Program-made: the position numbers and the translations under genes
NCBI GenBank assembly: GCA_031362725.1
Contig: JANLTC010000233.1
Coordinates: 12,308-76,307 of the forward strand
Direction: 5' to 3'
DNA: 64,000 nt
From: Deltaproteobacteria bacterium
GTDB lineage: Bacteria > Myxococcota_A > UBA9160 > PR03
The notes under the pieces: model-generated
Databases searched by the model: none
What the model was told of the DNA's origin: nothing
The model's input: the letters and a program-made list of their open reading frames with translations, nothing else
Part shown: piece after piece, positions 41,141 through 58,613 of the stretch
Position numbering within the stretch: the stretch's first letter is position 1
Layout of the letters: every line of letters begins with the position of its first letter

Positions 41141-41169
41141 GACTCCCGGCTGAGCCGGAGAGCCAACGG
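41141..41169 (+). repeat. Half copy (3' part) of the ~85-nt element
   Basis: GACTCCCGGCTGAGCCGGAGAGCCAACGG matches the 3' third of the full copies. Confidence 0.7.
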
Positions 41170-41172
41170 GGT

Positions 41173-41480
41173 TCAGAGGCTGGAGCCGGCGTCCAAGATC
41201 ATCGCCTGAAGGGACTCGAAGTATCTGCTGTGAGTCTTCTCGAGGTCGTCGAGCGAGGCTGCGGAAGGCAATACGACCTCGGCTTCAGACCGATCTGTGT
41301 ACTCGATCTCCAGTCGAGATCGACGTCGAAGGGCGTCGGGTCGTAGTCGAGTCGGAGCTTCTCGAGAGCCTCCAAGTCTTCGACTGACGGCTGCGTCGAC
41401 TTGCGAAGTCGCTCGCCGGGGCGATCGATCTGGCTCCTGGTGAAGGACCGCGGCACGGTCGCAAGGTAACGGCGAAGCGC
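41173..41480 (-). pseudogene. Frameshifted remnant of an unidentified small gene
   Basis: Two adjacent frames both show a coding-like G/C third-position bias: ...SVEDLEALEKLRLDYDPTPFDVDLDW, then EIEYTDRSEAEVVLPSAASLDDLEKTHSRYFESLQAMILDAGSSL*. There is no start codon. The stretch is visibly more AT-rich than its surroundings. Confidence 0.35.
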
Positions 41481-41606
41481 CGATGGAGTCAGGCGAGACC
41501 GCGCGCCGCGTTCGCCGTCGCCGAGCAGTGCAGGCGAGCAAGGCGCCGGCCAGAGAATCCACGGCAGCAAGAGCGTCACGGCGCTGTGGAGGTACCCTGC
41601 GCGTCG

Positions 41607-42854
41607 ATGCCGATCGCCAAATCCTCGACGAATCCGTACGAGAACCCGGCGCTGATGCGCTGGCTCGATTCCTACGAAGGCGTGCCGGAGTGGACCGATC
41701 CCGCGGAGACGCCCGCCGAGCGCGCCGCGCGATCGCCGTTCGGCGAACGCGTCTACGAGCTCTTCACGCTCGCCGGCGTGACACTGCCCGGGCTCGCGCT
41801 GCTGGCCGCGCTGGCGGCCGTCGCAACGAGCGGCGCACGCGTGCTCGGCGTGTCGCTGCTCGGTTTCGAGCGCTCGCCGGTGAGCCCGATCCTGGTCGCG
41901 ATCCTGCTCGGGCTCGCGATCCGCAACACGATCGGGATGCCGGCCGTCTACGAAGCCGGCGTGCGACTCGGCTTGAAGCGCATCTTGCGCGCGGGCGTCG
42001 CGCTGCTCGGGCTGCAACTGAGTCTCTCGGCGGCAGGCGCGATCGGGCTCATCGCGCTGCCGATCGTCGCGGGCTGCATCGTCTCGGCACTCGCGCTGGC
42101 CGGGTTCGTCGGCCGCCGCTTCGGATTGCCGCCGCGTCTCGCGACGCTGATCGCCGTCGGCACCGCGATCTGCGGCAACACGGCAATCGTCGCAACCGCG
42201 CCCGTGATCGGAGCCGACGACGACGAGACCAGTTACGCAGTCGGCTGCATCACCGTCTTCGGATTGCTCGCGCTGCTCGGCTACCCGTTCCTGTCGCACG
42301 CGCTGTTTGCAGGCGACGCGACGAAGGCGGGCCTCTTCCTCGGCACCGCGATCCACGACACGGCGCAGGTCGCCGGCGCCGGCCTGCTCTATCTCCAGCA
42401 ATACGGCGACGCGACGGCGCTCGAGACGGCGACCGTCACCAAGCTGGTGCGCAATCTGTGCATGCTCGTCGTGATTCCCGGCATCGCGCTGCAGCACCGG
42501 CGCCGGCACGGCGCTGCGAACCGCACGCGCGCCGACTGGCGTCAGGCCGTGCCCGGCTTCGTGTTCGCGTTCGTCGCGCTGACGGCGCTACGCACGGTAG
42601 GCGATCTCGGCGATCGCCCGTTCGGCCTGCTCGCGCCGGAGACCTGGCGCGCCTGTCTCGACTGGGCGAGCTGGCTCTCCGCCGCTTGCCTCACGGTCGC
42701 GATGGCGTCGGTGGGACTCGGCACCAGCCTCGCGCGACTGCGCAGTCTCGGGTTGCGCCCGCTCGCAGCGGGACTCGCGATCGCGCTGCTGGTCGGTGCG
42801 GTCAGCTACGCGCTGATCCGCGTGATCGCGCCGGCCGCGCAGCATCTGCTGTAG
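41607..42854 (+). CDS. YeiH/UPF0324 family putative sulfate-exporter-type membrane protein
   Basis: About 10 transmembrane helices with SPILVAILLGLAIRNT and GTAICGNTAIVATAPVIGA motifs. Start at ATG 41607, or GTG 41586. Confidence 0.8.
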   Translation: MPIAKSSTNPYENPALMRWLDSYEGVPEWTDPAETPAERAARSPFGERVYELFTLAGVTLPGLALLAALAAVATSGARVLGVSLLGFERSPVSPILVAILLGLAIRNTIGMPAVYEAGVRLGLKRILRAGVALLGLQLSLSAAGAIGLIALPIVAGCIVSALALAGFVGRRFGLPPRLATLIAVGTAICGNTAIVATAPVIGADDDETSYAVGCITVFGLLALLGYPFLSHALFAGDATKAGLFLGTAIHDTAQVAGAGLLYLQQYGDATALETATVTKLVRNLCMLVVIPGIALQHRRRHGAANRTRADWRQAVPGFVFAFVALTALRTVGDLGDRPFGLLAPETWRACLDWASWLSAACLTVAMASVGLGTSLARLRSLGLRPLAAGLAIALLVGAVSYALIRVIAPAAQHLL

Positions 42855-42859
42855 CGAAC

Positions 42860-42940
42860 GCGGCGCCGGCGTCGGAGCAGGCAGATGGTGCCGGCCGCAA
42901 TCGATAGGCAGAGGCCCGTCGTCGGCTCGGGCACGACGGC
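42860..42940 (-). pseudogene. Orphan PEP-CTERM sorting-signal remnant
   Basis: VVPEPTTGLCLSIAAGTICLLRRRRR on the minus strand. The body of the gene would lie where the IS256 remnant now sits. Confidence 0.4.
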
Positions 42941-43017
42941 CGGTAGTGCAACGTCCTTTCTGCAAAAGGCGCCGGATCGCGGCGTAGAGTTGAGATGGCG
43001 GGCCAAGCCCGCTCTCC

Positions 43018-43790
43018 TTGTGGGTGACGAGCATGGACGTGTCGCGCGCCGCGGCGGAGCTCGACGCGCGCTACGAGAAGGTCCGCCATGCCGGCTCGGT
43101 GATCAGCTGCGCCGTGCTCGTGGCGATGGGCGTACGCGAAGAGGACGGCAAGCGCATGCTGCTCGGCGTCTCGGTGTCGCTCTCCGAGGCCGAAGTACAC
43201 TGGCGCGCGTTCCTCGAAGGGCTTGGCAAGCGCGGGCTCGAAGTGACGAAGCCCGTCACGAGCGACGATCACGCGGGGCTACGCGCTGCGCGACGCGCCG
43301 TCTTCCCGAACCTGCCTTGGCAGCGCTGCCAGTTCCATCTGCAGCAGAACGCACAGCACTACGTTCCAAACATCGCGCTGCGCCCGCAGGTCGCACGAGA
43401 TCTGCGCTCCGTGTCCAACACAACCGAGCGCGGCGAAGCGGACGAGCGACTCGCCAAGTTCATCAAGAAGTACGGCGCTCCGCACCGAAGCTCGCGGAGT
43501 GGATGGAGACGAACGTGCCCGACGGCTTCGCCGTCTTCGCGTTGCCCGAGCCGCATCGCCGACGCCTACGCACGACCAACGCAATCGAACGGCTCAACCG
43601 CGAACTGCATCGACGTACACGCGTTGCGACGCTGTTCCCGAACGAGGCCTCGCTCCTCGGCCTGGTCTCGGCGATCGCCGCCGAGATCAGCGAGGACTTG
43701 GAAACGGGACGCATCTACTGGAACCCGGAGAGCGAGTGAGGACGCCAGCTCAACCGCTCTTACAAAAGTAGAGTTGCTTAGTCGTCAGCG
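43018..43790 (+). mobile_element. IS256-family transposase remnant (5' truncated, frameshifted)
   Basis: LDARYEKVRHAGSVISCAVLVAMGVREEDGKRMLLGVSVSLSEAEVHWRAFLEGL...WQRCQFHLQQN. After a frameshift near 43478-43485 it continues APKLAEWMETNVPDGF...LRTTNAIERLNRELHRRTRVATLFPNE. The first ~130 aa are missing. The ~50 nt after the stop may include the IS end. Confidence 0.85.
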
Positions 43791-44052
43791 CGCCCTCTAC
43801 CATTGTCATAGATATCTTGTTTGACAACACTAGCCGCGCCCTGGGCCAGCCGTAAATTGAGGACAGGGAGCTTAGTTCACGGAGGAGCCAAGTGGATTCA
43901 TCAAAGCCGGCCCAGCCGACGGGCGCACCCGAAGCAAGCGCCGCGGAAGCCAAACTTCGGACCGAGGAACGCCTCGTTCAAAGCACACCAAAGGGTTACA
44001 TCCGGGTGGTGAAACCGCCGGATGGTAAGACGGACTAGGACGGGAGGAGAAA

Positions 44053-44547
44053 ATGGCGCTTTTTTTCCAAAACGCGATGGGTACACCGGTATGGGTCGCC
44101 TTTGCCTATTACGACCCGCTTTGTGGGCCTGCGAATCAGAACTTCCGCAAGCAGGGGTGGTGGCGACTTGAGCCCTACCACACGTTTACGGGCTCGCCAT
44201 TGTTTAACGCCTGGGATGTCGATCTCCGGACGATCAACAGATTTGCCTATTTTTACGCAGAGACCGACGGCAATCGCTCCAATTGGAGCGGCAGTGGCAA
44301 CGGTTGGCTCAGTGTGAATCCAGCGGCGACATTCGACCAATGCGCGTTTGAGGACACAGGCAATAGTCAGTGGGTGAATTTCAATGAGATAGACTTTACG
44401 TGGATCAAGGACTTCACGCGGGCTGACCCATTCTGGGATATGGTGGTGTTACTATGGCACTGGGAAGGAAGAAACAGGATCGGGTATACACAGCAGATGA
44501 GAAAGCCTAATGGTGAGATCGTGCAATCCGGCATAGGACCAGGATGA
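44053..44547 (+). CDS. DUF1036-like protein in an AT-rich islet
   Basis: GGGAGGAG RBS. VWVAFAYYD...QGWWRLEPYH...FAYFYAE...W.G resembles the DUF1036 pattern (recalled). The local composition is clearly more AT-rich than the flanks. Confidence 0.6.
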   Translation: MALFFQNAMGTPVWVAFAYYDPLCGPANQNFRKQGWWRLEPYHTFTGSPLFNAWDVDLRTINRFAYFYAETDGNRSNWSGSGNGWLSVNPAATFDQCAFEDTGNSQWVNFNEIDFTWIKDFTRADPFWDMVVLLWHWEGRNRIGYTQQMRKPNGEIVQSGIGPG

Positions 44548-44731
44548 GCGATGGTCTCGATAGAGCCCTCCCCGAATCCGATACGACACCGGCTCGTGTG
44601 GAGGACGATCCCACCTGTGCAGCGATCTCGGAGAAACCGGACTGCGCCTCGATCGAGATCCTCGGTTCACTGCGCGAGCTGCTCGCGACTCCGCCGGCAA
44701 TCCCGCTCACGCACACGCCAACACACCGCCC

Positions 44732-44988
44732 AAGCCTGACGCCGCCAGGGCGAGGCGGCTCGCGTTGGCAGAGCTGATGAAGCGCGTCTCGCCATCGACG
44801 TACTCGAGTGTCCGCGCTGCCGCGGACGGATGCGCATCCTCGCGGCGGTCCACCCGCCCGACACCACGTCGGCCATCCTCGCCTGCATGGTCCTCGCGGT
44901 GCGCGCCCCACCGCTTGCACCGGCGCGCCGTGACGACGGCTTCGACGACGAAGCGGCCGACCAATCTCCCGCCGACCTCGAAGCATAG
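44732..44988 (+). mobile_element. IS91-family (Y2/HUH rolling-circle) transposase C-terminal remnant
   Basis: ...RRLALAELMKRV, a frameshift near 44785, then LAIDVLECPRCRGRMRILAAVHPPDTTSAILA...PPLAPARRDD...*. This matches the WAELLxRVFxIDVLxCPxCGGxMR tail of IS91-type transposases. The stop TAG lies inside the ~85-nt element. Confidence 0.65.
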
Positions 44989-45061
44989 TAAGTACAAGCG
45001 GGACTTTGTTGTCCGATAAAGAGATCTATGGCAATTGCTGGCTGAGCGCGAGAGCCAACGG
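44977..45061 (+). repeat. Full copy of the ~85-nt element (subtype 1)
   Basis: CTCGAAGCATAGTAAGTACAAGCGGGACTTTGTTGTCCGATAAAGAGATCTATGGCAATTGCTGGCTGAGCGCGAGAGCCAACGG. Confidence 0.9.
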
Positions 45062-45385
45062 GCGCGCGAGTTCGCGGAGCGCGCGCTGCATGCCAACGGC
45101 GGCGCGAACCGCGCGGATCGCGTCGTCCTCGGCGACGCGCGGCACACCGAACGCAGCGAGCACGCCGTCGCCGGGCGGCTGCACGACGCGGCCGCCGTGC
45201 ACCTCCACCGCAGCCGACATCGCGCGGTGATGGCGGTCCATCAGCCGGCGCGCGGACTCGGCGTCGAGGCGCTCGTGCACTGAGACCGAGCCGATCAGAT
45301 CGGCGAAGACGATCGTGACGATCTTGCGCGAGACGGCGTCGGCGGCCGGACGCGCCCGATGAACTTCGCTCGCCTTCGGCTCGCT
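45062..45385 (-). pseudogene. Class III adenylate/guanylate cyclase catalytic-domain fragment
   Basis: RKIVTIVFADLIGSVSVHERLDAESARRLMDRHHRAMSAAVEVHGGRVVQPPGDGVLAAFGVPRVAEDDAIRAVRAAVGMQRALREL. The frame then reads into the repeat (ARPLALALSQ). The C-terminal half of the domain is absent. Confidence 0.8.
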
Positions 45386-45715
45386 GTGTCTTCGTAGAGA
45401 TGCAGCACGATCTCGGAGTCGGAGCGCGTGCGCAGTCGGTGGCCGCGCCCTTCGAGCTCGCGCTGGATGCGTTCGTAGTCGTAGAACTCGCCGTTCACGA
45501 CCGCGTGGATCTGCTCATCCTCGTTGGTGATCGGCTGGTCGCCGGTCGCAAGGTCGATGATCGAGAGCCGCGCGTGGCCGATGCCCACGCGCGCGAGTGG
45601 CGCCACCCAGACGCGCTGGCCATCCGAACCGCGGTGGTGGAGCTCGCGTGGCGCGCCAGAGTGTCTCCTCCGGGACCGGGCCATTCGTCGAGAACACCGT
45701 CACGATTCCACACAT
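45386..45715 (-). pseudogene. asnB: Asparagine synthetase (glutamine-hydrolysing) N-terminal fragment, frameshifted
   Basis: MCGIVTVFSTNG... (Ntn Cys2), a frameshift, then LHHRGSDGQRVWV...HARLSIIDLATGDQPITNEDEQIHAVVNGEFYDYERIQRELEGRGHRLRTRSDSEIVLHLYED. It is fused directly to the cyclase fragment. Confidence 0.8.
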
Positions 45716-46950
45716 GCTGCTTCTCCTGTGATCATCCGGCGGACCTCCGCCGATGCGAGCCATGAGGCAGCGACGACCGCGAGCATCGCGGCGCCCGCGA
45801 TTGCGCAGCCCGCCGCCGGACCGAACGCACGCGCCAGCAAGCCGCAACCGAGATTGCTGAGCGGTGTCATTCCGAGGAAGCCGAGCGAGTGGACCGAGAG
45901 CACGCGCGCGCGGTTGGCGCTGCTCGCGTTCTCTTGGAACAACGCTCGGCTGGTGTTGAAGAAGAGCGAGTGCAGCATGCCCCACGCGAACACGATCGCC
46001 ACGAACGCCCAGAACGGGGGACTCGCCGCGATCGCGAAGAGGCACGCGCAGACACCCACGAGCGCCACCAGGAAGGCCCGGCCCTGGCGCCGCAGCCCGC
46101 CGCGCAGCAACACCGCGAGCGACCCGGCCATTGCCCCGAGCGAGAGCACCATCCACTGCAGCGCGAGCTCGCGGGCGCCACCTTTGTAGAAGTCGCGGAT
46201 CAGCAGCGGGCCGAGCACCTGGAACGGGCCCATGAAGAACAACCCATTGGCCGCGACGAGCAGCGCCACCGGAAGCAGGCGCGGCGAGTGCGCAACCTCG
46301 ACGAGCCCGCTCTTCAGCGCGGCGAGTGTGCCAGAGCCGTCACCGATCGCTGTCGGGCGGACATGCGCCGGCAACTGGCGCACCGCGAGCAGACCCGCCA
46401 GTAGGATGCCCGCCTGGAGCGTCAGCGCAACGGCGCTTCCGAGCGGCTCCGCGATGCCGCCGAGCCGCGAGCCAGCGGCCGACGCCGTGAACTGCACGAA
46501 CGTCGCGCCGGTGATCGCCCGCAACAGGTTGCCCCGTGCGACGTGCGACACCTGGGCGTCGCGCGCCGGCGCAGCGAATGCCTGGATCGTTCCCCACGCG
46601 AGCGCGAAGACGAGCAGCAACGAGAGCGCGAGATGATCGGAGCCGATCGCGGCGGCGAGCGCCGCGGTGATCGCCGCCGCCCCGACGTGGAGCCAGGCCA
46701 GAAGCCGTCGCAGTTCGACGCGATCTGCGAGCAAGCCCCCAAAGAGCACCAACCCGAGCGTCGGTAGCGCCAGACACATCTGCGCGACGCCCACCCACGA
46801 CGCGGACGCGCGTAGCTCCCCGACGACGAGCCACGAGAAGACCACCTGGTTCATCGAAGAGGCGAGCGCCCAACTCCCGACCGAACCCAGGAACCACGCG
46901 TACGGCGAAGGCATCGCGCGGACCGGGGCGACGATCGGGGCATCGAGCAT
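45700..46950 (-). CDS. MFS transporter (EntS/MFS_3-like)
   Basis: Twelve predicted transmembrane helices and N-terminus FLGSVGSWALASSMNQVVFSWLVV. The stop overlaps the asnB remnant start by 16 nt. Confidence 0.8.
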   Translation of the reverse strand: MLDAPIVAPVRAMPSPYAWFLGSVGSWALASSMNQVVFSWLVVGELRASASWVGVAQMCLALPTLGLVLFGGLLADRVELRRLLAWLHVGAAAITAALAAAIGSDHLALSLLLVFALAWGTIQAFAAPARDAQVSHVARGNLLRAITGATFVQFTASAAGSRLGGIAEPLGSAVALTLQAGILLAGLLAVRQLPAHVRPTAIGDGSGTLAALKSGLVEVAHSPRLLPVALLVAANGLFFMGPFQVLGPLLIRDFYKGGARELALQWMVLSLGAMAGSLAVLLRGGLRRQGRAFLVALVGVCACLFAIAASPPFWAFVAIVFAWGMLHSLFFNTSRALFQENASSANRARVLSVHSLGFLGMTPLSNLGCGLLARAFGPAAGCAIAGAAMLAVVAASWLASAEVRRMITGEAACVES

Positions 46951-47126
46951 CGACGCACGCTATCGCAGCGCGCGGCTTCGGAGCTGTGAACTGGGGCACA
47001 ACGGGGCGGCTTGGCCGCGCGAGCCCGCTCATCGCATGGCGCAGCAAGCGCCGCCCGGTCGAGATCCAGCGTGTACGGATGATGCTCGCTCTGCCCTTCG
47101 CCATGGGCTCTTCCTCCTTCCCCACG

Positions 47127-47470
47127 CTAGCGGGTGAGCAGTCCCGACTCCGAGAGCGCGCGCTCGAGCAGATCGGCGACCTCGAGGACCGACGCCCAAT
47201 GGCGCCGGTGCGCGAGATCGAGTCGCTCCCGCTGGACCTTGAGCACGCCGAGGACATCGCGCCACTTCCGATCCGAGGCGCCGCCTCCCTGCCGGTACCA
47301 GTCGCGCTTGCGAAGGATCAGGTCGAGCGCGGCTCGCCGAGAATCGAACTCGACAGCGAGCCGCCGAGGACGATCGCCAGCTTCTGCGCGGCGTTCATCG
47401 CGCGCCACGCTTCGATCTGGCGCCGCTCGATCTCGATCGAGGTGTCTCGCGATTGGGTCCGAGCCGGCAT
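47127..47470 (-). pseudogene. Chimeric remnant: small helical protein N-terminus fused to the C-terminal part of a nucleotidyltransferase-family protein
   Basis: MPARTQSRDTSIEIERRQIEAWRAMNAAQKLA in one frame, then ...LDLILRKRDWYRQGGGASDRKWRDVLGVLKVQRERLDLAHRRHWASVLEVADLLERAL* in another. Confidence 0.45.
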
Positions 47471-48132
47471 TTCGAGCAGCATACCTGCCGCCCTGGAGTG
47501 CACTCAGGAGGCAACGATCGCCCGATTCCGATCTCCCGGAGCCGGGGGGGCGGAGCACTCGCGATCGCCGCGGTGGCTGGAATCGCGTGGTGTCGGCGGA
47601 CGTCGTCGCGAGTCGCCTCAGACCCTGAGCGGGACCATGAACGGTCAAATCGTGCTCTTGACCGAGAATGAGTCTCCTGACGACTCCCGACGCAACGGGA
47701 GTGACGCGCTCTTGCTTCTTCGGACCTTGGATCGTGAGAGGATCTCGAAACCGTCGTAGCGCCAGGCCGGTATACACCAGGATCGGAGCGCTGCTGCAGT
47801 CTCCAAGACACCCGAAGAGCCCTGCGAAATGGAGCACCACGCCCGGCTTCGCTTCCCGGCGCCTCCACCATTCACGCCCTGGTCCACGACCTGCGAAACG
47901 CGCAGGCGTTCTTCTGAGTACCGAGATCGCTTCGCCGGAGCTTGTCGATCTGGACACATCAGGGCGTAGTCCGCGCGATGCAGATCGTGCGTCCACGACA
48001 ACCGATGCACGAACCGACTCCGGTCATTCCCCTGCGGCGGCCATGACAAGCCCCGAGAGGACGCAGCGCCGAGAACCAGACGCAACGCATCGCGGTTCCA
48101 ATCGGGGATTCACGATCGATCGTGAGCGTCCT

Positions 48133-48164
48133 GGCAAGTACCGGCTGAGCGCGAGAGCCGGCGG
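48133..48164 (+). repeat. Half copy (3' part) of the ~85-nt element
   Basis: GGCAAGTACCGGCTGAGCGCGAGAGCCGGCGG matches CAGTACCGGACTGAGCGGGAGAGCCAACGG of copy 54962-55047. Confidence 0.65.
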
Positions 48165-48251
48165 CTGGCCGGGCGCATGACGCTGAACCCGACCTGATCG
48201 GGTTGTCAGCTTTTGAAGCAAGAGTGTTGCGCTAGCCCGTACAGCGTTTAG

Positions 48252-50531
<2,280 letters not shown>

Positions 50532-50545
50532 TCCCGGAGCAGGAC

Positions 50546-50755
50546 TCACTCGCAAGTGTGAACGGAAGCGCGTTCTGACTCGAGAATGAATGAACGGCGG
50601 CGTTCGATGCGCAGCGCAGCCTCGAGCGGGAGGTGCTCCGCACCGATCACCGCACGCAGGACTCCTGCCACGGCGATCGGCGGCTGCGCGGGCAGCGGGG
50701 CCAACGGCGGGCGAGCAGACGCAGATCCCGTACAGATCGCGATCAGCGTGATCAT
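50546..50755 (-). CDS. Possible small hypothetical protein
   Basis: A 69-aa ORF with G/C-rich third positions, convergent with katG. No clear RBS and no homology recognised. Confidence 0.25.
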   Translation of the reverse strand: MITLIAICTGSASARPPLAPLPAQPPIAVAGVLRAVIGAEHLPLEAALRIERRRSFILESERASVHTCE

Positions 50756-50788
50756 GTTGAGAGCGCGCGTGCGATGGGGAACGCACGA

Positions 50789-50911
50789 CTATTTCTTGGA
50801 CACGTTGTTGATCACGACGACCAGCAGGACCACCACCAGTACGCCGATCAGCGTCCAGATCCACATCCCTCCGCCCATGGACCCACTCATCCATCCGTCT
50901 GCATGATTCAT
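50789..50911 (-). CDS. Small Gly/Met-rich single-pass membrane protein (40 aa)
   Basis: MNHADGWMSGSMGGGMWIWTLIGVLVVVLLVVVINNVSKK. The ATG shares 1 nt with the upstream TGA. Confidence 0.55.
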   Translation of the reverse strand: MNHADGWMSGSMGGGMWIWTLIGVLVVVLLVVVINNVSKK

Positions 50912-51357
50912 CACGAAGCTCCTTTCGTTGCGCTGCGGCCCGCCCACCACCGGGCGAACAGGAACGTGAGCGGCGGCAGCAGCGTCAATTGGAGCAGCGG
51001 CCACAAGCCCGCGCCGAGCACGGGCACCACGGGCATGCGCTCGGTGTACGACCAGCGCCCGGCGGCCAGCGCCGCATGTTCCACCAGCGCCCCAGCTGCG
51101 AGCCCCAGAACAGCGGCCGTGGCGTAGTGGTTCCAGCGTCCGCGCAAGCCCCAGCCGAGATCAGCGGCGATCAGCGCGCTCGCCGCGTAGAGCATCAAGA
51201 TGATTCCCACATCACCCGCCGCCGCCCGCGTACAAGTACCGAGCGTGCTCGTCCAGGATCGCCCCACCATTTCGACATATGCGGACATCTGCGCCATTTC
51301 CCAGATTTCGTTCACGACGAAGCCCGCCAACACCGTCGTCGTGAAGAACCGCATCAA
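50911..51357 (-). CDS. Hypothetical four-helix membrane protein
   Basis: Hydrophobic segments (FFTTTVLAGFVV, VGIILMLYAASALIAA, YATAAVLGLAAGALV, LWPLLQLTLLPPLTFLF). Translationally coupled to the small protein downstream. Confidence 0.6.
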   Translation of the reverse strand: MMRFFTTTVLAGFVVNEIWEMAQMSAYVEMVGRSWTSTLGTCTRAAAGDVGIILMLYAASALIAADLGWGLRGRWNHYATAAVLGLAAGALVEHAALAAGRWSYTERMPVVPVLGAGLWPLLQLTLLPPLTFLFARWWAGRSATKGAS

Positions 51358-51569
51358 CCGCCACCAAGGCAGGCCGCTCGAAGCGACTCTACTTCTGCTG
51401 TGCCTCAGAACGTCTCACTAACCGTCGGTTCGATACGTTGCTCGCCGTTGTGTTCGTGTCGTACGCCGCTGATCGTGTCGTAGACCACCTTCCGCACGCG
51501 GTTGACGACTCCGAGCGGGCGGTGTCCTACACGCGCGTGGCACGGCGAGTAGGAAAGATTCTCGCAGAA

Positions 51570-51652
51570 CTCGGAGCATAGTAAGTACAAGCAGGCTTTT
51601 TGTCCGACTACGAGTTCCATGCCGATTCCTGGCTGAGCGCGAGAGCCAACGG
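51570..51652 (+). repeat. Full copy of the ~85-nt element (subtype 1)
   Basis: CTCGGAGCATAGTAAGTACAAGCAGGCTTTTTGTCCGACTACGAGTTCCATGCCGATTCCTGGCTGAGCGCGAGAGCCAACGG. Confidence 0.9.
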
Positions 51653-51838
51653 CTTCCGACAGCTCGATCGTGTCGGACCCGTCAACGCGTTGGCCTCCTG
51701 GATCGCAGCGCGCAGCGTACAGATGTCCGTCGTCACCGAGCAGAAGCCGTTACCCGGTACCGCGTCGGACAGATCCGCCGTCGAGTCGACGACGACGGTC
51801 GTGGCGCCGGCATCGAGCGCGAGCAACGAAGAATTCAT
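51653..51838 (-). pseudogene. CSLREA-domain protein N-terminal fragment
   Basis: VVVDSTADLSDAVPGNGFCSVTTDICTLRAAIQEANALTGP, then a 1-nt frameshift (restoring it gives DTIELSEA), and the frame reads into the repeat (PLALALSQ). Confidence 0.7.
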
Positions 51839-51913
51839 CGGCACGACGTGACGCAAAGGATCCCCCTCACCAACCCTCCGCGCAGCCAACCGATGCGAAT
51901 CTCGAACGCGGCC

Positions 51914-53032
51914 CTACGATGGCCTGCGAGACGATCCGCCCCGTCGAGCCGAGGCCAGCGCAAACAGCGCACTCGCGGCGAACCAACCGAGCGCCGCAGC
52001 GTCTGGTTCTGGCATGAAGACTGCGATGCCATCCGCCGTCGTCGCAACCGGCAGGTCCGGCGTGAGGATCGACTGCGTCCAGGCCGCGGCCGGGTGCGAA
52101 CGCTCGATGCGCACGATGCGCGCCGAGATGCCGCCTGTGTAGTCGTAGTCGACGACATAGAAGCGGTCGGCGCCTGGTTCGTTAGCGAGGAGCGTAGGGC
52201 AGCGCAGCAAGCCGCCTTCGGACTCGATCTCGATTCCGGAGGGCGGTGTAATCAAGATGAGGCCGGGGCCGCCGCTCGGCAGACAGACCAGGTCCGATTC
52301 CCGAAGGAACGTCCGAATGGCATACAAGCGCGGCCCGGCGGGATCGGCGCCGCCGATCGCGACGCCCGTGATGAGCCGGAGCGCCAGGTCTGTGCCGACG
52401 AGTTGCAGGTTCGTCGCGTAGGAATCGCAGCAGGATCCGTTCTCTCGGAGGTAGAACAGGCCCGCAAGCGTGGCCATGTAGATATTCGGATTGGTGAGGT
52501 CGCTCTCGACGGCGAGCGTGGTCACGTTCGCGAGACTGGCTTCTGAGAGGTACACCGAGGTGCTCCAGCCGCTCGAGAAGCTCTCACTTGCGTACGAAAC
52601 GCCGGCGCTGCCCGCCACGTAGAGCTGATCGCCGGACAGGAATCCGGGCCGGGTCGCGAGCGCACGCGGGGTGTCGATCGTGATCGCGTAGGTGCTGCCG
52701 CCAAAGGGATCGAAGTCTCGATGGTAGAGGTAGCTCTGCTCGCCCGTCGCCGGATCGATCCGCACGATGTGATCGCTCACGGTGTCGCCGACATAGATCG
52801 TTCCGTCCGATCCGACCGTGATGCCGCCCGGCTGGGCCAGCAGGATCGGCGATCCCTCGGGCGGCAGCAGCGGCTCGACCTCGCCCGTTTGCTTGCGAAC
52901 GATCAGCACCCGCGAGCCATCGAAGTCGGTGACCAGCAGATCCCCGCGGCCCGGCGGCGTGGCGACCGCCATCCGCGGGACGAAGAGCGCGGCGATCAGC
53001 ACGGCACAGGAGATCCGGCGGAACAGGAGCAT
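51914..53032 (-). CDS. Beta-propeller-like PEP-CTERM protein
   Basis: Signal MLLFRRISCAVLIAALFVPRMAVA. NHL-like strands (DGTIYVGDTVSDHIVRIDPATG, DQLYVAG). The tail is VFMPEPDAAALGWFAASALFALASARRGG. Confidence 0.8.
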   Translation of the reverse strand: MLLFRRISCAVLIAALFVPRMAVATPPGRGDLLVTDFDGSRVLIVRKQTGEVEPLLPPEGSPILLAQPGGITVGSDGTIYVGDTVSDHIVRIDPATGEQSYLYHRDFDPFGGSTYAITIDTPRALATRPGFLSGDQLYVAGSAGVSYASESFSSGWSTSVYLSEASLANVTTLAVESDLTNPNIYMATLAGLFYLRENGSCCDSYATNLQLVGTDLALRLITGVAIGGADPAGPRLYAIRTFLRESDLVCLPSGGPGLILITPPSGIEIESEGGLLRCPTLLANEPGADRFYVVDYDYTGGISARIVRIERSHPAAAWTQSILTPDLPVATTADGIAVFMPEPDAAALGWFAASALFALASARRGGSSRRPS

Positions 53033-53320
53033 CGCGCCCTCCAACGTCCACCACGCTACCGCCGTAGGTTCGGCAGCGCTCGGCTCCGGTAGCCGCTGCG
53101 GGTCGCTTTCCGAACCACTGCAGTCATTCGGCGACGCAAGCAGGTCCGTCAAAAAAACCCTCCAGAGCGGGTGGCGATTTGTCTCGTAGCGGATACCCGT
53201 CAAACGACGACGCGAAGCATGAGCATCATAGGGATATGGCGTCTCCGAGCAGGTGCCTCCCGAACCCGCCGGGGATCCTCGAGTTGGTGATGCAACGATC
53301 CCAAACGAGATTACACACCG

Positions 53321-53562
53321 ATGGAACGCGTTCTGGGAAACGACGTCCATGCTGCGAACTGCACGCTCGCGGTGATCTCGCAGGCGGGCAAGCGCCTCAC
53401 GGACTTCCCGATCGAGACCAACGGCCACGCGCTGGTCGAGGTGATCCGGAGGATTCCGGGTCGCAAGCATTTGGTCTTCGAGGAAGGCATAGAGAGTACT
53501 TGGCTCTACGAAACGCTGAGTCCCTGACGTGCAGGCCGTCGACTTGCGTGCCAAGGTCTAGT
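53321..53562 (+). mobile_element. IS110-family transposase N-terminal remnant
   Basis: MERVLGNDVHAANCTLAVISQAGKRLTDFPIETNGHALVEVIRRIPGRKHLVFEEG matches the DEDD N-terminal pattern (GxDVH...avvd..G...n...G...l). It is truncated after ~70 aa. Confidence 0.6.
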
Positions 53563-53694
53563 CATGGCGAGACCCGCTTCTGTCGCCGATCACTTGGTTG
53601 CTCGTGAACGCGAGCGAGCCGGGCGCCTCGGGTTCGGGGAGCGCGCGCGCGAACGGCACGCTGGACGACGCCACTCGGTCGCAATGGGGTTCGA

Positions 53695-53943
53695 TTGAGT
53701 CTGCTCGCAGCAGTGGCTTCGAGGCTCGAAGAGGCCGGAATTTCCTTCGCGTTGCTACGAGCGGGCGCGGTCGCAGTCCACGGCGTGGCACGCGCCACGG
53801 GTGATGTCGACTTGCCGACCGTCGCCTCCGATGCACTTCGGCCATCGACCTGGCGTGCTCGGAGAATCAGCGATCGCTGCCTGGCTTCGCGTACTCGGGT
53901 GAAGTGGCTGGGTGACACCAAAGAGTTCGAGACGAATCCGTGA
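53695..53943 (+). pseudogene. Nucleotidyltransferase-family N-terminal fragment (possibly a short intact ORF)
   Basis: LEEAGISFALLRAGAVAVHGVARATGDVDL matches the hG..R.T.DiDl NTase motif, but the rest is Arg-rich and unlike the family. The stop overlaps the thioesterase GTG (GTGA). Confidence 0.35.
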
Positions 53944-54380
53944 CCGAGTCGGGCCAATCCGACGACCCCGTCGACCGCGCGCGACGCATGAACGAGTTCT
54001 TCGGCCCGCTCGTGCCCGGCCAGCTCGGCTGCGTCTTCGATCACGCGGGGACCGACCTGGTGCTCGGACACATCGATGTGACCGAGAACCTGATCGCCGG
54101 CACCGGCTTCCTGTTCGCGCCGGCGGTCGTCGCGCTCGCGGACACCTGCGCGGCGATCGGCTGCGGCGCGAACATTCCAGCCGGCGCGTCGTTCACGACG
54201 ATCGAACTGAAGTCGAACTTCCTGGCATCGGCGCGCGTCGGCGAGCGCGTGACGTGTCGCTGCACACCGGCGCATCTCGGCCGCCAGACCCACGTCTGGG
54301 ACGCGGTCGTCGCCAACGAGACGACGGGCCGCACGATCGCGCTCTTCCGCTGCACGCAGATGGTGCTGCTGCGTCGTTGA
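53940..54380 (+). CDS. PaaI/hotdog-fold thioesterase
   Basis: 146 aa. GHIDVTENLIAGTGFLFAPAVVALADTCAA...TIELKSNFLASARVGERV...GRQTHVWDAVV is typical of the PaaI family. Confidence 0.8.
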   Translation: MTESGQSDDPVDRARRMNEFFGPLVPGQLGCVFDHAGTDLVLGHIDVTENLIAGTGFLFAPAVVALADTCAAIGCGANIPAGASFTTIELKSNFLASARVGERVTCRCTPAHLGRQTHVWDAVVANETTGRTIALFRCTQMVLLRR

Positions 54381-54517
54381 TTCGCGCGACACTGGATCAC
54401 GATGTCGTTCCAGGCGCCTGCGCCGAGCGCGTCGAAGCTCGCTCCTGCAGCAGCCAGCATCTCCTCTCCGTGTGTCACCCAAGGTCGCGAGCTGAGGCTG
54501 TCGGATGGGCAAGAGAT

Positions 54518-54961
54518 TCATTCTCGGATGCGAATCCCGCTTGGACTCGTCGTGCCCTTTGCGCGACGAGTCGCAGAAGCGCGGACCCGGAAGCCCGTGA
54601 GCAGGCCGAGCGCCGCCCAAGCCATCCCTTGGGCAAGCCCACGCGGTGGGGCCGGGACTACCGCGAGCGCGCCCAGCGGGTTGATCGACAGCTCGAGACC
54701 GCTGTTCGATCCGGCCCCGCCGAGGTCCCCCACGGTGAAGGACTCGCCGCTGTCGAGGCTTAACCCGAATGTGTAGGACCAGCTGCCAGGCGCGTTGACG
54801 ACGAGCGACGCCGAGTACTCATCGTTGTTGGCGATGTCCAGCTCGAACGCAGCAGGCGCCCAGGTCCACGCGGCATCCGCGCGCGGATCCGTTCCCGGCG
54901 CGCGACAGCCGGCGTCCGCACGGATCGAAGCGTTGGAACCGAATGACTCCGTCGCGCCAGC
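54518..54961 (-). pseudogene. 5'-truncated gene ending in a PEP-CTERM-like tail
   Basis: ...SWSYTFGLSLDSGESFTVGDLGGAGSNSGLELSINPLGALAVVPAPPRGLAQGMAWAALGLLTGFRVRASATRR. The upstream part of the frame is the reverse complement of the repeat, so the N-terminus is missing. Confidence 0.6.
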
Positions 54962-55047
54962 CTCGAGGAGCATAGGAAGAACAAGCGGGGTTTTGGGTCC
55001 GATAACGGGATCTATGTCAGTACCGGACTGAGCGGGAGAGCCAACGG
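54962..55047 (+). repeat. Full copy of the ~85-nt element (subtype 2)
   Basis: CTCGAGGAGCATAGGAAGAACAAGCGGGGTTTTGGGTCCGATAACGGGATCTATGTCAGTACCGGACTGAGCGGGAGAGCCAACGG. Confidence 0.9.
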
Positions 55048-55175
55048 GCGCCGATCGCGTCGACTCGATCTGAGAAGCCACCGCGGAGAGCGGTGCGGCG
55101 TCAGACTCGTTGCTCGTCGAGTCGATTGCGCTTAGCGCGCGTGGGGTCCGAGGCGACGCGCAACCACCAGGACGC

Positions 55176-56471
55176 TCACGAGGCCTGCTCGACGTCGAGG
55201 CGGGTGAGTCCCCGCAACACCGGGTTGGGCCGGTACTCGGGGCGGTCGTCGACGAGTTCGAGCTTCGGGAAGCGCCGCGTGAGCGCCTCGAAGGTGAGCT
55301 GCGCTTCGAGGCGGGCGAGCGGCGCGCCGAGACAGAAATGTGTTCCGAAGCCGAATGCGAGGTGCGGGTTCGGGTCGCGGGCGAGGTCGAGTTCGTCGGG
55401 GTTCGCGAAGACCGCGGGCTCGTGGTTGGCGGCGCCGATCGAGATGAGTACGAGCGCGCCCGCAGGGATCGCGTGTCCGTCGATCGTCACGTCCTCGAGC
55501 GCCACGCGCAGCGTCGCCTGCACGGGTCCGTCGAAGCGCAGCAGCTCCTCGATCGCGGTCGGAAGCAGCGCGGGCTCGGTGCACAGCCGGCGCCACGCGT
55601 CGGGCTCGCGGAGCAGCGCGAGGACGCCGTTGCCGACGAGGTTCGTCGTGGTCTCGTGCCCGGCGAGCAGCAACAGGTTACTCGTCGCGAGGAGCTCGGC
55701 ATCGCTCAGGGCGTCGCGTTCCTCCTGGGCCTGGATCATCGCGCTGATCAGGTCCTCGCGCGGCGCGCGGCGGCGATCCGCGATGGTGTCGGCGAGGTAG
55801 CCGAAGAGGTGCCGCCCGGCCTCGGTGGCGACGGCGCGCGCGTCGGCGCTGGTCGACGCGATGCCCGAGATCAATGCGCTCGACCACTCACGGAATTGGC
55901 GATGGTCGCTGGCCGGGACGCCGAGCAGCTCGGCGATCACGATCGCCGGCAGCGGCTCGGCGAGATCGCGGATCACGTCGAAACGGCCGCGCTCGGCGGC
56001 CTCGTCGAGCAGCGTGCGTACGAGCGACTCGATGTGATCGCGCAGCGCCGCGATGCGCTTCGGCGTGAAGGCCTTGTTCACGAGCTTGCGCACGCGGGTG
56101 TGGTCGGGCGGGTCCATGATCAACATCGAACGCAGGCCCTGTGAGCTCTGGCGCAGGAATTCGGGCATGCGATCGAGGTTGTCGCGCACGAGCGGGGCGC
56201 GGATGCGCTCGACCGAGAAGCGCGCGTCGCGCAGCACGTCATGCACGTCGCGATAGCGCGTCAGCATCCACATGCCGGGGCCGTCCCAGCCGGGGACCGG
56301 CACCTCGAGCACGGGGCGCACGGTCCGGATCAGGGAGTAGATCGGGTAGGGGTTCTCGAGTGAGCCGGCGCTGCGGAGCGGGAGCAGCAGGTCGAACTCG
56401 CCCGCGCCTCCGCTTCGAGCGCCGGCGCGCACCGGGGACTGGACGGGGGAGGTCGGGGTTGCGGAGGCCAT
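55176..56471 (-). CDS. Cytochrome P450
   Basis: Heme-thiolate loop FGFGTHFCLGAPLAR, ExxR (EELLRF), and I-helix LLLAGHETT. Confidence 0.95.
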   Translation of the reverse strand: MASATPTSPVQSPVRAGARSGGAGEFDLLLPLRSAGSLENPYPIYSLIRTVRPVLEVPVPGWDGPGMWMLTRYRDVHDVLRDARFSVERIRAPLVRDNLDRMPEFLRQSSQGLRSMLIMDPPDHTRVRKLVNKAFTPKRIAALRDHIESLVRTLLDEAAERGRFDVIRDLAEPLPAIVIAELLGVPASDHRQFREWSSALISGIASTSADARAVATEAGRHLFGYLADTIADRRRAPREDLISAMIQAQEERDALSDAELLATSNLLLLAGHETTTNLVGNGVLALLREPDAWRRLCTEPALLPTAIEELLRFDGPVQATLRVALEDVTIDGHAIPAGALVLISIGAANHEPAVFANPDELDLARDPNPHLAFGFGTHFCLGAPLARLEAQLTFEALTRRFPKLELVDDRPEYRPNPVLRGLTRLDVEQAS

Positions 56472-56500
56472 CCTATTACTCCTCGGGCGCGCGATTGAAA

Positions 56501-56520
56501 ATGACCGACTAACCGGTCAT
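56501..56520. promoter_or_regulatory. Candidate TetR operator palindrome in the P450/TetR divergent intergenic region
   Basis: ATGACCG-ACTAAC-CGGTCAT has perfect 7-bp inverted arms. It lies 10 nt upstream of the TetR start. Confidence 0.5.
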
Positions 56521-56529
56521 GATAAGCCC

Positions 56530-57165
56530 ATGCCTCGCATCGCCGCAAGCGCTCGCGACGCCTTCTACGAGACCCGGCGCCAGGCTTTGGCCGATGTCGC
56601 GCTGAAGCTCTGGGGCGAGCGCGGCTACGACGGCACGTCGGTCGCGACGATCGCCGGCGAGGCCGGGATCGCGAAGGGCACCTTCTACCTCTACTTCGAG
56701 ACCAAGGGCGCGCTGCTGCTCGAGGTGCTGCGGCGCAACTCGCTGGTGCCGAACGTCCTCGCCCTCATCGACGACTTGAAGACGCGCAGCCTCGAAGAAG
56801 CGGTGCACGGCTTCGTGCGCGGCGCCTGGCGGCATCTCGACTCGCAGCGGAATCTGCTGCTCGTCGCGCTGCGCGAGATGCCGACACACCTGGCCGAGGC
56901 CCGCGACGCCGTCGCGCGCGTACTGGTGCCCGCAAACGCGGCCCTCGCTCGCGATCTCGACGCGCGCATTGGTCCGGCGCGTGCGGGGGAGATCTCGACG
57001 GTGATCGCCGTGCGCGCGCTCATCGGGATGATCGTCGTCACGTTCGTGACCCAGGAGATTCTCGGCGCCGGGCTGCTGCTCCCGGTGCCGGAGGCCGAGA
57101 TCACGAAGACGATCGCCGAGATGTTCCTCCGCGGTGTCGCGCCCCAGAAAGAGAGTGCCTCGTGA
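56530..57165 (+). CDS. TetR family transcriptional regulator
   Basis: HTH region GYDGTSVATIAGEAGIAKGTFYLYFETK. Confidence 0.9.
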   Translation: MPRIAASARDAFYETRRQALADVALKLWGERGYDGTSVATIAGEAGIAKGTFYLYFETKGALLLEVLRRNSLVPNVLALIDDLKTRSLEEAVHGFVRGAWRHLDSQRNLLLVALREMPTHLAEARDAVARVLVPANAALARDLDARIGPARAGEISTVIAVRALIGMIVVTFVTQEILGAGLLLPVPEAEITKTIAEMFLRGVAPQKESAS

Positions 57166-58463
57166 AGATCCGCCACTTCCGCCTGTTCCGCGTGCTGCGC
57201 GTCCAGCTCGCCGTCGCGCGCGTGCTGCCGCGCTATCTGCTGCTGCTCGCGCGCGAGCGCAGCGACCGCTTCCGGCCCGACGCCGCCGCCTGGACGCGGG
57301 TGCACACGACCGCCGCGCGCGAGGTAAAGGCCGTCGCGCTCTCGCTGGCGGGCGCGTTCACGAAGGCCGCCCAGATCCTCGGCGCGCGGGCCGACTTCGT
57401 TCCCGCGCCCTTCATCGAGGAGCTCTCCCAGTTCCACGACGCGGTGCCGCCGCGCCCCTTCGAGACGCTCGCCCCGCTCGTAGCGCGCGACCTCGGCAGG
57501 CCGCTCGACGAAGTCTTCGCGCGCATCGATCCGCAAGCGCTCGCCGCCGCTTCGCTCGCCCAGGTGCACCGCGCAACACTTCGAGATGGTCACGAGGTGG
57601 TGGTGAAGATCCGCTACCCCGAGGTCCCGCGCATCATCCCGCTCGACCTCGGCATGCTGCTGCGGGTCGTCACGCTGATCCAGCGCATCCAGCGCCGCAT
57701 CGACATGCGCGCGATGGTGACCGAGGTGACGCGCTTCATCGCGCTCGAACTCGACTTCCCGCGCGAGGTGCGCGCAACCGAGCGGCTCGCGAAGACGCTG
57801 GCCGACTGCCCCGACGTCGTCGTGCCGCGCGTCTACACCGCCCTGTGCGGATCGAGCACGATCGTGCTCGATTACGTGGAGGGCATCCAGGTGGGGCGCA
57901 CGGCGGCGCTCGTCGCGTCGGGCCACAAGCTCCCGCTGGTGGCGCGCAAGATCGGCGCCCTCTACGGCGCGATGATCTTCGAGCACGACTTCTTCCACGG
58001 CGACCCGCACCCGGGCAACCTGCTCGTGCTGCCGGACGGCCGAATCGGCCTGCTCGACTTCGGCCTGTGCAAGGAGCTGCCGGCGGGCTTCGCGCGTCTC
58101 GTCGCGCAGATGATGGTTTCGGCGATGATCGGCGACTCGCCCGCGGCGCTCGCGGCGGCCGCGCAGCTCGGCTTCGACACGAGCACGCTGCGCCCCGAGC
58201 ACATCCGCCCGATGATGCTGATGATGCTCGGCGACTCCGATGGCGAGACGGGCCTCTTCGACATCCTCGGCGAGAGCGCCGTGCGCCAGATCCCCGAAGA
58301 CTTCGCGCTCGTCGCCCGCACGCTCGTGCTGCTGAACGGCCTCTCCCACCGCCTCGCGCCCGGCCGCCGGCTGATCCAGGCGGAGCTGCTCCAACATCTC
58401 GCGGCGGGCGCGGCGCGGCGCGGGGCGGCGTACCGGCATGACGGGACCGGCGCTCGCCGGTGA
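57162..58463 (+). CDS. ABC1/UbiB-family atypical kinase
   Basis: AAASLAQVHRATLRDGHEVVVKIRYPEV and FFHGDPHPGNLLVLPDGRIGLLDFGL. The GTG start overlaps the TetR stop (GTGA). Confidence 0.9.
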   Translation: MKIRHFRLFRVLRVQLAVARVLPRYLLLLARERSDRFRPDAAAWTRVHTTAAREVKAVALSLAGAFTKAAQILGARADFVPAPFIEELSQFHDAVPPRPFETLAPLVARDLGRPLDEVFARIDPQALAAASLAQVHRATLRDGHEVVVKIRYPEVPRIIPLDLGMLLRVVTLIQRIQRRIDMRAMVTEVTRFIALELDFPREVRATERLAKTLADCPDVVVPRVYTALCGSSTIVLDYVEGIQVGRTAALVASGHKLPLVARKIGALYGAMIFEHDFFHGDPHPGNLLVLPDGRIGLLDFGLCKELPAGFARLVAQMMVSAMIGDSPAALAAAAQLGFDTSTLRPEHIRPMMLMMLGDSDGETGLFDILGESAVRQIPEDFALVARTLVLLNGLSHRLAPGRRLIQAELLQHLAAGAARRGAAYRHDGTGARR

Positions 58464-58523
58464 ACCTGCGTGCCCGTTGCCGTGCGGCAAAATCTCCGCG
58501 TGAAGAAGCCCGGCTGGCCGCTG

Positions 58524-58613
58524 CTCGCGAGCATAGGAAGAACAAGCGGGGGTTTTGGTCCGATAACAGGGCAAGCCTCAGCGACACCCGGGCTGAGCGG
58601 GAGAGCCCAACGG
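58524..58613 (+). repeat. Full copy of the ~85-nt element (subtype 2, divergent middle)
   Basis: CTCGCGAGCATAGGAAGAACAAGCGGGGGTTTTGGTCCGATAACAGGGCAAGCCTCAGCGACACCCGGGCTGAGCGGGAGAGCCCAACGG. Confidence 0.9.

Follow-up and report, generated by a model that had tools for sequence, protein, structure and literature searches.

A 64,000-nucleotide (nt) stretch of DNA from a Deltaproteobacteria bacterium (assembly GCA_031362725.1, contig JANLTC010000233.1, positions 12,308 to 76,307), referred to here in its full length as the window, carries an array of same-strand copies of a short repeat, between which lie blocks of unrelated genes. Sequence comparisons strongly support the view that this repeat is the ~85-nt module at the origin end (oriIS) of an ISCR-like insertion sequence (IS) of the IS91 family, and that the copies in the window are orphan miniatures of that end. 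The repeat is called the module below, and the loci of other genomes and metagenomes with which it was compared carry L numbers.

The repeat array and its gene blocks

Copies of the module were identified by a repeat search, a multiple alignment, two degenerate-pattern searches and an nhmmer profile applied to both strands of the whole 64 kb. The profile and pattern searches recovered the six plus-strand copies described in an earlier note on this DNA, with six matches to the 3' motif in the window (0.02 expected from dinucleotide shuffles) and four to the 5' motif (0.00 expected), and the comparisons added a seventh, degenerate copy, Mx, that had been overlooked (Table 1). The copies at 41141 and 48133, previously taken for half copies, are alignable over their whole length and are instead diverged full-length copies (M1 and M3). 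No further copies were found by profile and pattern searches on the minus strand or in the rest of the window, and no terminal inverted repeats were seen in the repeat search or the alignments, as the note had stated. The array opens with M1, 128 nt past the stop codon of an aminotransferase gene. Pairwise identity among the window copies is 62-85% over 85 nt, and the alignment separates at least three subtypes that are also present in other genomes, from which it follows that the window copies arrived independently. M6 has a variant central part and the inner end GCCCAACGG, and Mx lacks the AGCCAACGG end. The six-copy spacing is more even than chance (coefficient of variation 0.071, equalled by 13 of 200,000 random placements), an evenness that is weakened once Mx is counted, with gaps of ~2650 and ~470 nt. 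Mx lies ~470 nt upstream of the weak copy M3, and this pair recalls close module doublets in L030 and L044.

Table 1. Module copies, disrupted genes and cargo of the array, in window positions
Feature	Position	Strand	Description
M1	41088-41170	+	diverged full-length oriIS module copy; nhmmer E=1e-15
IS256-type transposase remnant	42994-43824	+	first block; Transposase_mut profile 164-314/379
IS91-family (Y2 HUH) transposase 3' remnant	44571-44981	+	cut at stop codon by M2 left end
M2	44973-45062	+	solo oriIS module, TAAGTAC subtype; nhmmer E=1e-22
Adenylate/guanylate cyclase fragment	45026-45514	-	3'-truncated at M2 CCAACGG end; Pfam Guanylate_cyc profile 7-92/183
Glutamine-amidotransferase (asparagine synthase-like, AsnB) N-terminal fragment	45295-45699	-	directly downstream of major facilitator superfamily (MFS) gene, adjoining cyclase fragment
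Mx	~47620-47705	+	seventh copy, degenerate, M1-like subtype; nhmmer 47653-47701 E=0.009, plus repeat family and alignment
M3	48088-48160	+	degenerate full-length copy; nhmmer E=9e-5; 3' motif with 2 mismatches; alignment
KatG catalase-peroxidase	48291-50531	+	N-terminal hydrophobic, signal-peptide-like extension
M4	51567-51652	+	solo oriIS module, TAAGTAC subtype; nhmmer E=1e-22
CSLREA-domain fragment	51608-51913	-	3'-truncated at M4 CCAACGG end; retains CSLREA N-terminal domain only; TIGR04214 CSLREA_Nterm E=3e-8
PEP-CTERM-like C-terminal fragment	54518-54961	-	5'-truncated at M5 GAGCATAG end; translation ends ...VVPAPP...AWAALGLLTGFRVRASATRR
M5	54962-55048	+	solo oriIS module, GGAAGAAC subtype; nhmmer E=1e-24
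Cargo P450(-)/TetR(+)/UbiB(+)	55175-58430	mixed	between M5 and M6
M6	58522-58610	+	solo oriIS module, GGAAGAAC subtype; nhmmer E=5e-17
Ku fragment	58578-59122	-	3'-truncated at M6 CCAACGG end; Pfam Ku profile 2-145/190

The module edges coincide with gene breakpoints. Pfam and TIGR profile coverage bears out that three minus-strand genes (cyclase, CSLREA and Ku) lose their 3' part exactly at the CCAACGG end, and a 5'-truncated PEP-CTERM-like gene adjoins the left end of M5, as had been read from the open reading frames. The shared frame in which these genes had been seen to run into the repeat (PLALALSQ or WALPLSPG) is meaningless; the junction phases are 0, 0 and 2, and the resemblance is therefore a coincidence. 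Seven solo copies are flanked on each side by coding signal, and in none of them do frame and strand continue across the element, which speaks against simple insertion. At the right edge of the array the Ku fragment is adjacent to a Ku paralogue (59103-59891, minus strand), and both are disrupted just past the same MRGK motif; the upstream gene has an in-frame stop at 59442-59444, where its Pfam Ku profile match ends at position 143 of 190 and a Ku-like frame continues beyond.

Five related contigs (within L065-L070) share synteny with the window up to and including the aminotransferase gene (39623-40960), beyond which the DNA differs in each, and the array therefore lies in a hypervariable island. 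Its blocks are foreign and mosaic. They hold an IS256-type remnant, an asparagine-synthase N-terminal fragment and an IS91 remnant at a G+C content of 0.60-0.71 across the array, and the breakpoint between AsnB and cyclase (45.3-45.5 kb) is internal to a block and has no module. In the fetched loci, nucleotide matches to the window blocks were limited to the IS remnant, the aminotransferase and the P450-TetR-UbiB trio. This trio is 88.9% identical at the nucleotide level to L073 (3393-6635) and ~91% to L074-L076, with homology that reaches window position 58417. One homology boundary coincides with the P450 stop codon, and the other lies inside the 3' end of UbiB, ~45 nt short of its stop. Relatives of the trio lie in three other neighborhoods, with no module in the four loci with readable DNA (L073-L076), and the two boundaries indicate that the trio was cut out of its original setting near the ends of its genes. 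Neither DNA nor protein comparison revealed the downstream genes of L067 and L068, including the candidate ancestral neighbor DAO, in the window, L065, L069 or L011, a result that neither favors nor disfavors a model of deletion in situ. L011 and L069 share an aminotransferase gene at 99.5% identity, yet their first module and intergenic region differ.

Two other features of the window are recorded here. A large-subunit catalase is encoded at 61544-63679, outside the KatG-bearing array. A second strain-variable segment at 26030-34920, ~8.9 kb of lower-G+C DNA in place of ~850 nt of L065, encodes glycosyltransferases, a C-methyltransferase and DUF4910/M28-like proteins, and contains no module copies.

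Linkage of the module to an IS91/ISCR-type transposase

In order to place the module outside the window, one genome per species was scanned with the 3' motif, followed by a scan of metagenomes and then by sampling with the transposase protein. The motif scan returned true copies in several metagenome-assembled genomes (MAGs), mainly labeled 'Deltaproteobacteria' or Myxococcota and often with two or three copies per 8 kb. In L024, L004, L013 and L017 an IS91-type gene (Pfam Zn_Tnp_IS91 plus Y2_Tnp) stands beside the repeat in a fixed arrangement, in which the transposase stop codon is followed by a conserved spacer of ~180-190 nt ending in CCGCTTCTTTCCCCAG (End A) and then by the reverse complement of the repeat. 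Nine more such cases came from metagenomes (L030, L031, L032, L035, L041, L042, L054, L055 and L056). The earlier note had suggested looking for a copy attached to an intact transposase, and these four loci together with the nine from metagenomes supply it. All-against-all comparison of the flanks of IS-linked copies showed that the CCAACGG-side flank is common to them at 86-94% identity and the GAGCATAG-side flank never is. Because the inside is shared and the outside unshared in at least ten independent insertions, the GAGCATAG end of the repeat is the IS terminus; the CCAACGG side faces the IS body and the GAGCATAG side is the IS tip. The intact element is thus ordered as terIS side, tnpA (~560 amino acids), spacer with End A and module with End B, the terminus, and in IS orientation the module reads CCGTTGG-hairpin...GCTTGTTCTTCCTATGCTCC.

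Since the motif-found loci had been selected by the repeat itself, the IS was also sampled by protein. The module is present in L057 (86% amino acid identity), and homologous, co-diverged modules are found in L059 and L061 (70%) and in L062 and L063 (68%), the last two diverging from each other directly after ...GCTTTTTTGTCCTACCCAT, the module tip. These results bear on the idea that the module is an independent repeat, of REP (repetitive extragenic palindromic) or attC type, beside which the IS inserts, so that End A would be the true IS end. End A does resemble an IS91-type terminus, with 12 of 24 positions identical to ISCR2, and adjoins CCGTTGG, whose GTTG is close to the targets of the IS91 family, which include GTTC and CTTG (PMC13181058); flank comparisons alone, moreover, cannot tell a part of the IS from an obligate target. 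Against this, the module co-diverges with the transposase in the 68-70% relatives, protein sampling turned up no IS copy that lacked a module where the contig included the 3' end, and the terminus conserved in ISCR elements (TCTTCCTAT) marks the outer extremity of the module, as far from the stop codon as would be expected, and not End A. We therefore regard an independent target as very improbable.

The only transposase of the repeat-linked IS in the window is the 3' remnant at 44571-44981, which is 78-85% identical at the nucleotide level to the transposase 3' ends of L024, L030, L031, L041, L042, L056 and L057. The 82 codons upstream of the M2 copy at 44973 give a weak match to the NCBIfam profile ISCR_clade_Ia (positions 454-487 of 509), and tblastn matches were obtained as well. 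Compared with the transposases of ISCR1 and ISCR2/ISVsa3, that of the repeat-linked IS shows 38-40% identity; the ends of these two known elements were read off annotated plasmids. The ISCR1 end, ...GGTGGTTTATACTTCCTATACCC (oriIS tip TTTATACTTCCTATACCC), lies 233 nt past the stop codon and the ISCR2 end, ...GGGCGTTTATTCTTCCTATACG (oriIS tip TTTATTCTTCCTATAC), ~240 nt past it, whereas the module tip, ...CCCCGCTTGTTCTTCCTATGCTCC, lies 265-275 nt past the transposase stop in intact copies. Over the last 22 nt of the module tip, taken as the reverse complement of the M5 5' end, 15 of 22 positions are identical to either ISCR terminus, with TCTTCCTAT in common; the terminal motif shared by ISCR1 and ISCR2 is TTTAT(A/T)CTTCCTATAC, compared with CTTGTTCTTCCTATGC here. 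The IS also resembles ISCR elements in its Zn_Tnp_IS91 plus Y2_Tnp transposase, in an oriIS a few hundred nt downstream of the stop codon, in the lack of terminal inverted repeats and in unrelated, variable DNA joined at conserved ends. Of the earlier proposal that the repeat is the end of a rolling-circle IS91/ISCR-like element that captured flanking DNA, the identity of the end stands on the transposase linkage and the ISCR terminus, while one-ended capture is plausible, with experimental precedent in IS801 and IS91; the sharp inner boundary, the truncated genes, the polymorphisms at the boundary and the stutter duplications are compatible with it. We also considered the repeat as terIS of the same IS and rejected it; the region upstream of tnpA (L024, L056 and L058) does not resemble the module, and a CGTTGG present in L024 is outside the conserved IS.

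A physical place within an IS end likewise weighs on the suggestion that the repeat encodes a small structured RNA, a cis-regulatory RNA or a terminator, for which a conserved unit of ~85 nt with small local hairpins could be cited. The Rfam covariance scan gave no family at gathering score, and at E<=1 it returned two chance microRNA matches only, one outside the copies (45880-45952) and one overlapping the 5' part of M1 (41050-41123, 23.8 bits versus 95). RNAalifold found no consensus structure on either strand of 53 distinct copies, and single-sequence folding z-scores ranged from -1.3 to +0.7. The RNA option, which the note had listed, has next to no probability.

Several observations on the distribution and context of the IS are set down here. 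In L059 and L060 (3377-4270, minus strand) and in L064 (2160-2993, minus strand), a Phage_integrase-family gene lies divergently upstream of the IS91-type transposase; this neighbor occurs in the 68-70% relatives of the IS and not in the clade linked to the window repeat. In L004 (286-901) and L048 (616-864) the CCAACGG end of a module runs into the 3' portion of an oppositely oriented IS copy. The order in L004 is module, transposase 3' fragment, spacer and inverted module; beyond the module, the contig of L048 includes nothing more than the transposase fragment. The point within the transposase gene at which the junction lies differs between the two loci. The 'Spirochaetales' contig L011 (CAYGWM010000127.1) is, over the aminotransferase gene, 99.5% identical to L069 and 92% identical to window positions 39588-40977. 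Some MAG hits (labeled Spirochaetales, Planctomycetota and Thermoanaerobaculaceae) therefore probably owe their phylum labels to binning errors, and the apparent spread of the module across phyla is unreliable. No repeat copy was found in viral contigs.

Module ends and the assembly of the array

The module is bracketed by two terminus-like junctions, since the End A junction, CCGCTTCTTTCCCCAG followed directly by CCGTTGG, resembles the true terminus CCGCTTGTTCTTCCTATGCTC and is conserved, as CCGCTTGAATCCCCCGCC, in the 68-70% relatives. A hairpin of the form (C/T)TCCCG-N6-CGGGAG stands directly before AGCCAACGG at the inner end, with variants in three subtypes that keep the pairing, and a second short hairpin (CCCG-AGAA-CGGG) lies within the module. 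The overall folding energy of the module is no better than that of shuffles, and RNAalifold gives no consensus. The inner end is also the site of sharp polymorphism. L033 and L046 are 100% identical over 861 nt and L048 and L049 are 98.4% identical, each pair diverging exactly after CCAACGG, and the window is homologous to L069 and L070 through M1 and diverges exactly at 41170. Tandem duplications of 8-10 nt of the CCAACGG motif occur in 8 of 56 distinct copies, IS-linked ones included, with such inner-end stutters in L003, L009, L030, L042, L053 and L057. At the other end, L045 (855-915) carries a 20-nt tandem duplication of the GAGCATAG tip compared with the otherwise identical L038, the same locus in two samples. 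The exact divergence after CCAACGG, the CCAACGG duplications and the duplicated tip suggest that both module ends are sites of enzymatic activity and not random breakpoints.

One way to account for this pattern is a cassette platform in which the HUH transposase would nick successive CCAACGG sites, release single-stranded circles each made of a block and the next module, and insert them at a resident module. Consistent with it, the module and its left flank stay constant and the DNA after CCAACGG changes in all three comparisons above (window versus L069/L070, L033/L046 and L048/L049), same-orientation arrays with units of 2.6-3.9 kb occur in L004, L009, L023, L024, L043 and L044, and the spacing in the window is regular; the stutter duplications, the hairpin immediately 5' of the CCAACGG site and the position of the first module at the edge of the hypervariable locus also fit. 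However, no cassette common to two arrays emerged from flank comparison, L003 and L004 contain modules in both orientations, several blocks are mosaics with internal breakpoints that lack a module (as between AsnB and cyclase at 45.3-45.5 kb), and L011 compared with L069 shows that whole-island replacement also occurs. Adjacent deletion or homologous recombination would, in addition, yield the same polymorphisms. We consider such a platform unlikely. That the orphan modules are the recombination sites of a natural HUH cassette system, which would move circles of ~3-3.5 kb and build integron-like arrays with no tyrosine recombinase, is an unlikely proposition; under it, the size of the units would be set by how long the single-stranded intermediate can be. 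The earlier note had envisaged an undescribed cassette-shuffling system and had held that a match to a known IS family would refute it. Such a match exists and the idea fails on that count; what is left of it is the narrower one of HUH-mediated insertion at resident modules.

Homologous recombination offers a different explanation, in which 85-nt miniatures moved singly and served as portable homology, the mosaic and the lost gene halves arising from recombination or deletion between same-orientation copies. Most IS801 fragments in the genomes of Pseudomonas syringae have been explained in this way (PMC3189936), recombination between copies would put apparent breakpoints at module edges, and the modules of L033 and L046 are identical. 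On the other hand, at 62-85% identity over 85 nt the window copies are a poor substrate for RecA-dependent exchange, and the two edges should break equally, whereas among solo copies we find three pairs with the same left and a different right flank and none with the reverse, in what is a small sample. Single miniature insertions also sit poorly with the seven solo copies with coding flanks, none of which resembles a simple insertion. We hold this recombination model, like the cassette platform, to be unlikely, and neither is mutually exclusive with the account that we favor.

According to that account, which we consider probable, orphan oriIS miniatures of an ISCR-like IS mark the junctions of a strain-variable island composed of foreign blocks. 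The comparisons establish what the module is and which way it points, that it is continuous with the IS, that its ends are sharp and polymorphic, and that the blocks are foreign and mosaic; the enzymology and the succession of events are inferred. A transposase acting in trans may have made the miniatures by premature termination and joined unrelated DNA to them at CCAACGG. The plus strand of the window shows the transferred (bottom) strand, with GAGCATAG as the tip and CCAACGG as the inner end. Rolling-circle synthesis from the tip would terminate at the hairpin-CCAACGG site and release the 85-nt unit, and miniatures such as those of the window would be mobilized in trans only. By acting on orphan ends, the transposase would join unrelated DNA at the inner end, for which the candidate routes are read-through (one-ended transposition), insertion of a circle at a resident module, and adjacent rearrangement or recombination. 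Repeated events of this kind at one hypervariable locus downstream of the conserved aminotransferase gene could have produced the mosaic island, and the same-strand orientation of the copies would be the usual outcome of strand-specific, single-strand HUH transposition. In terms of one-ended transposition, genes would be truncated with their other half absent because read-through at the inner site carries adjacent DNA.

Several points weigh against this account. Among ~39 non-redundant solo copies compared over 400-nt flanks, no unit of module plus right flank was found in two contexts, so that direct evidence for a module moving together with its cargo is lacking. In the three informative polymorphic pairs the module remains with the left flank, an outcome not expected of a simple one-ended unit; DNA inserted at a resident module, or a deletion next to it, would account for these pairs at least equally well. 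The preferred unit length, 3.1-3.9 kb here and 2.6-3.6 kb in several other arrays, lacks a mechanistic explanation under random termination, and there is no intact transposase in the 64-kb window. The left (ter) end of the IS differs among about three independent full copies, so that terIS is not precisely placed, and the flanks of the tip are CG-rich (often ...CG directly before GAGCATAG) with no single fixed target tetranucleotide. Finally, metagenome assembly could in principle have created chimeric joins at repeats, although typical final k-mers exceed the module in length.

Relation to known systems and significance

The closest precedents lie within the IS91 family. In IS91, the last 82 bp and the flanking tetranucleotide suffice for oriIS function, the bottom strand is transferred, and termination at terIS often fails, so that one-ended transposition is frequent (PMC13181058); the ~82-bp right end is comparable with the 85-nt module. 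In its natural host, IS801 gave right-end miniatures of 229, 360 and 679 nt in 26% of transposition events, through premature termination at an internal left-end-like site, and also carried 290-1431 nt of adjacent DNA (PMC3189936). The modules described here resemble these miniatures in lacking a transposase, in keeping the right (ori) end, in the stop at an internal left-end-like site and in the proposed mobilization in trans, and IS801 and IS91 likewise can, as the same elements, carry adjacent DNA of variable length. They differ in that the IS801 miniatures measure 229-679 nt and arose de novo in an entrapment assay, and in that one 85-nt product dominates here, widely dispersed and subtyped (and so ancient), in arrays with kilobase-scale spacing. 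Differences from ISCR elements are that the hosts are environmental Myxococcota-like bacteria and not clinical Gammaproteobacteria, that a second, internal terminus-like motif (End A) lies ~85 nt inside the tip, that the 85-nt segment occurs as a discrete solo element in arrays, and that the cargo consists of ordinary metabolic and stress genes in place of resistance genes. The IS of this repeat is a new member of the IS91/ISCR family, and a discrete two-ended 85-nt ori module with arrays at a hypervariable locus is a new variation on the behavior of that family. ISCR-like elements of this kind are common in Myxococcota-like environmental bacteria.

The array shares with integrons and clusters of attC sites lacking an integrase (CALINs) same-orientation repeats of 60-140 nt between unrelated cargo, a hypervariable locus and hairpins usable in single-stranded DNA. 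An attC identity was nonetheless rejected. The closest core-site matches (GTTGGCT and AGCCAAC) each have a mismatch and the wrong relative position, the module ends inspected by eye (GAGCATAG... and ...GCCAACGG) form no core-site pair, and neither DNA folds of both strands nor the alignment fold pair the module end to end. The absence of integron core sites reported earlier is thus upheld, with no RYYYAAC ... GTTRRRY pair and no R''/L''-L'/R' palindrome; no Phage_integrase or IntI was found in plausible open reading frames of 35-64 kb, and a window-wide family scan showed no integrase among the top 25 of the 55 families found. In contrast to integrons and CALINs, the region at 35-64 kb has no IntI or tyrosine recombinase, no palindrome pairs the two ends, the units measure 3-4 kb and hold several genes in both orientations with many fragments, and the repeat is an IS91-family end.

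Other identities were set aside as well. A classical miniature inverted-repeat transposable element does not fit, as no terminal inverted repeats were seen and none of the seven solo copies with coding flanks simply interrupts a target. A CRISPR array, already doubted because of the large spacing, has repeats of 23-50 nt with short spacers, whereas the unit here is ~85 nt and the copies are 0.5-3.9 kb apart with genes between them. ARAGORN and Rfam gave no match for tRNA, tmRNA or accretion at an att site, and inspection of the minus strand by eye showed no hexamer pair at a usable spacing for a sigma-54, sigma-70 or ECF (extracytoplasmic function) promoter. Remnants of a group II intron or of a TnpB omega-RNA were also considered, and nothing spoke for them once the IS91 link had been found. 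Helitrons use HUH rolling-circle chemistry, and their non-autonomous copies share only the termini with the autonomous element; a subterminal hairpin terminates transposition, gene fragments are captured by end bypass, and head-to-tail arrangements occur. Helitrons and Helentrons serve as an analogy only, with no sequence relationship and a different, Rep-helicase transposase architecture; it is the 3' terminator that is bypassed in Helitrons, and in IS91-type elements the ter end opposite ori.

The belief that ISCR and IS91 elements build up resistance regions through one-ended rolling-circle transposition draws mostly on the anatomy of clinical plasmids, and to our knowledge no ISCR has been shown to move. 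The locus described here and its relatives indicate that an environmental ISCR-like family leaves a recognizable signature, made up of an 85-nt two-ended ori module, polymorphism at the module ends and kilobase-scale arrays of foreign blocks. The shortness of its module, its defined junctions and the many variants found in nature make this family a tractable system for measuring the capture and stacking of genes by rolling-circle insertion sequences and for asking whether orphan ori ends serve as landing pads. Recognition of the module may also aid the annotation of mosaic islands, in which gene callers now report one pseudogene after another. Were the cassette reading true, integron-like gene arrays would have a second origin, by a mechanism unrelated to the first.

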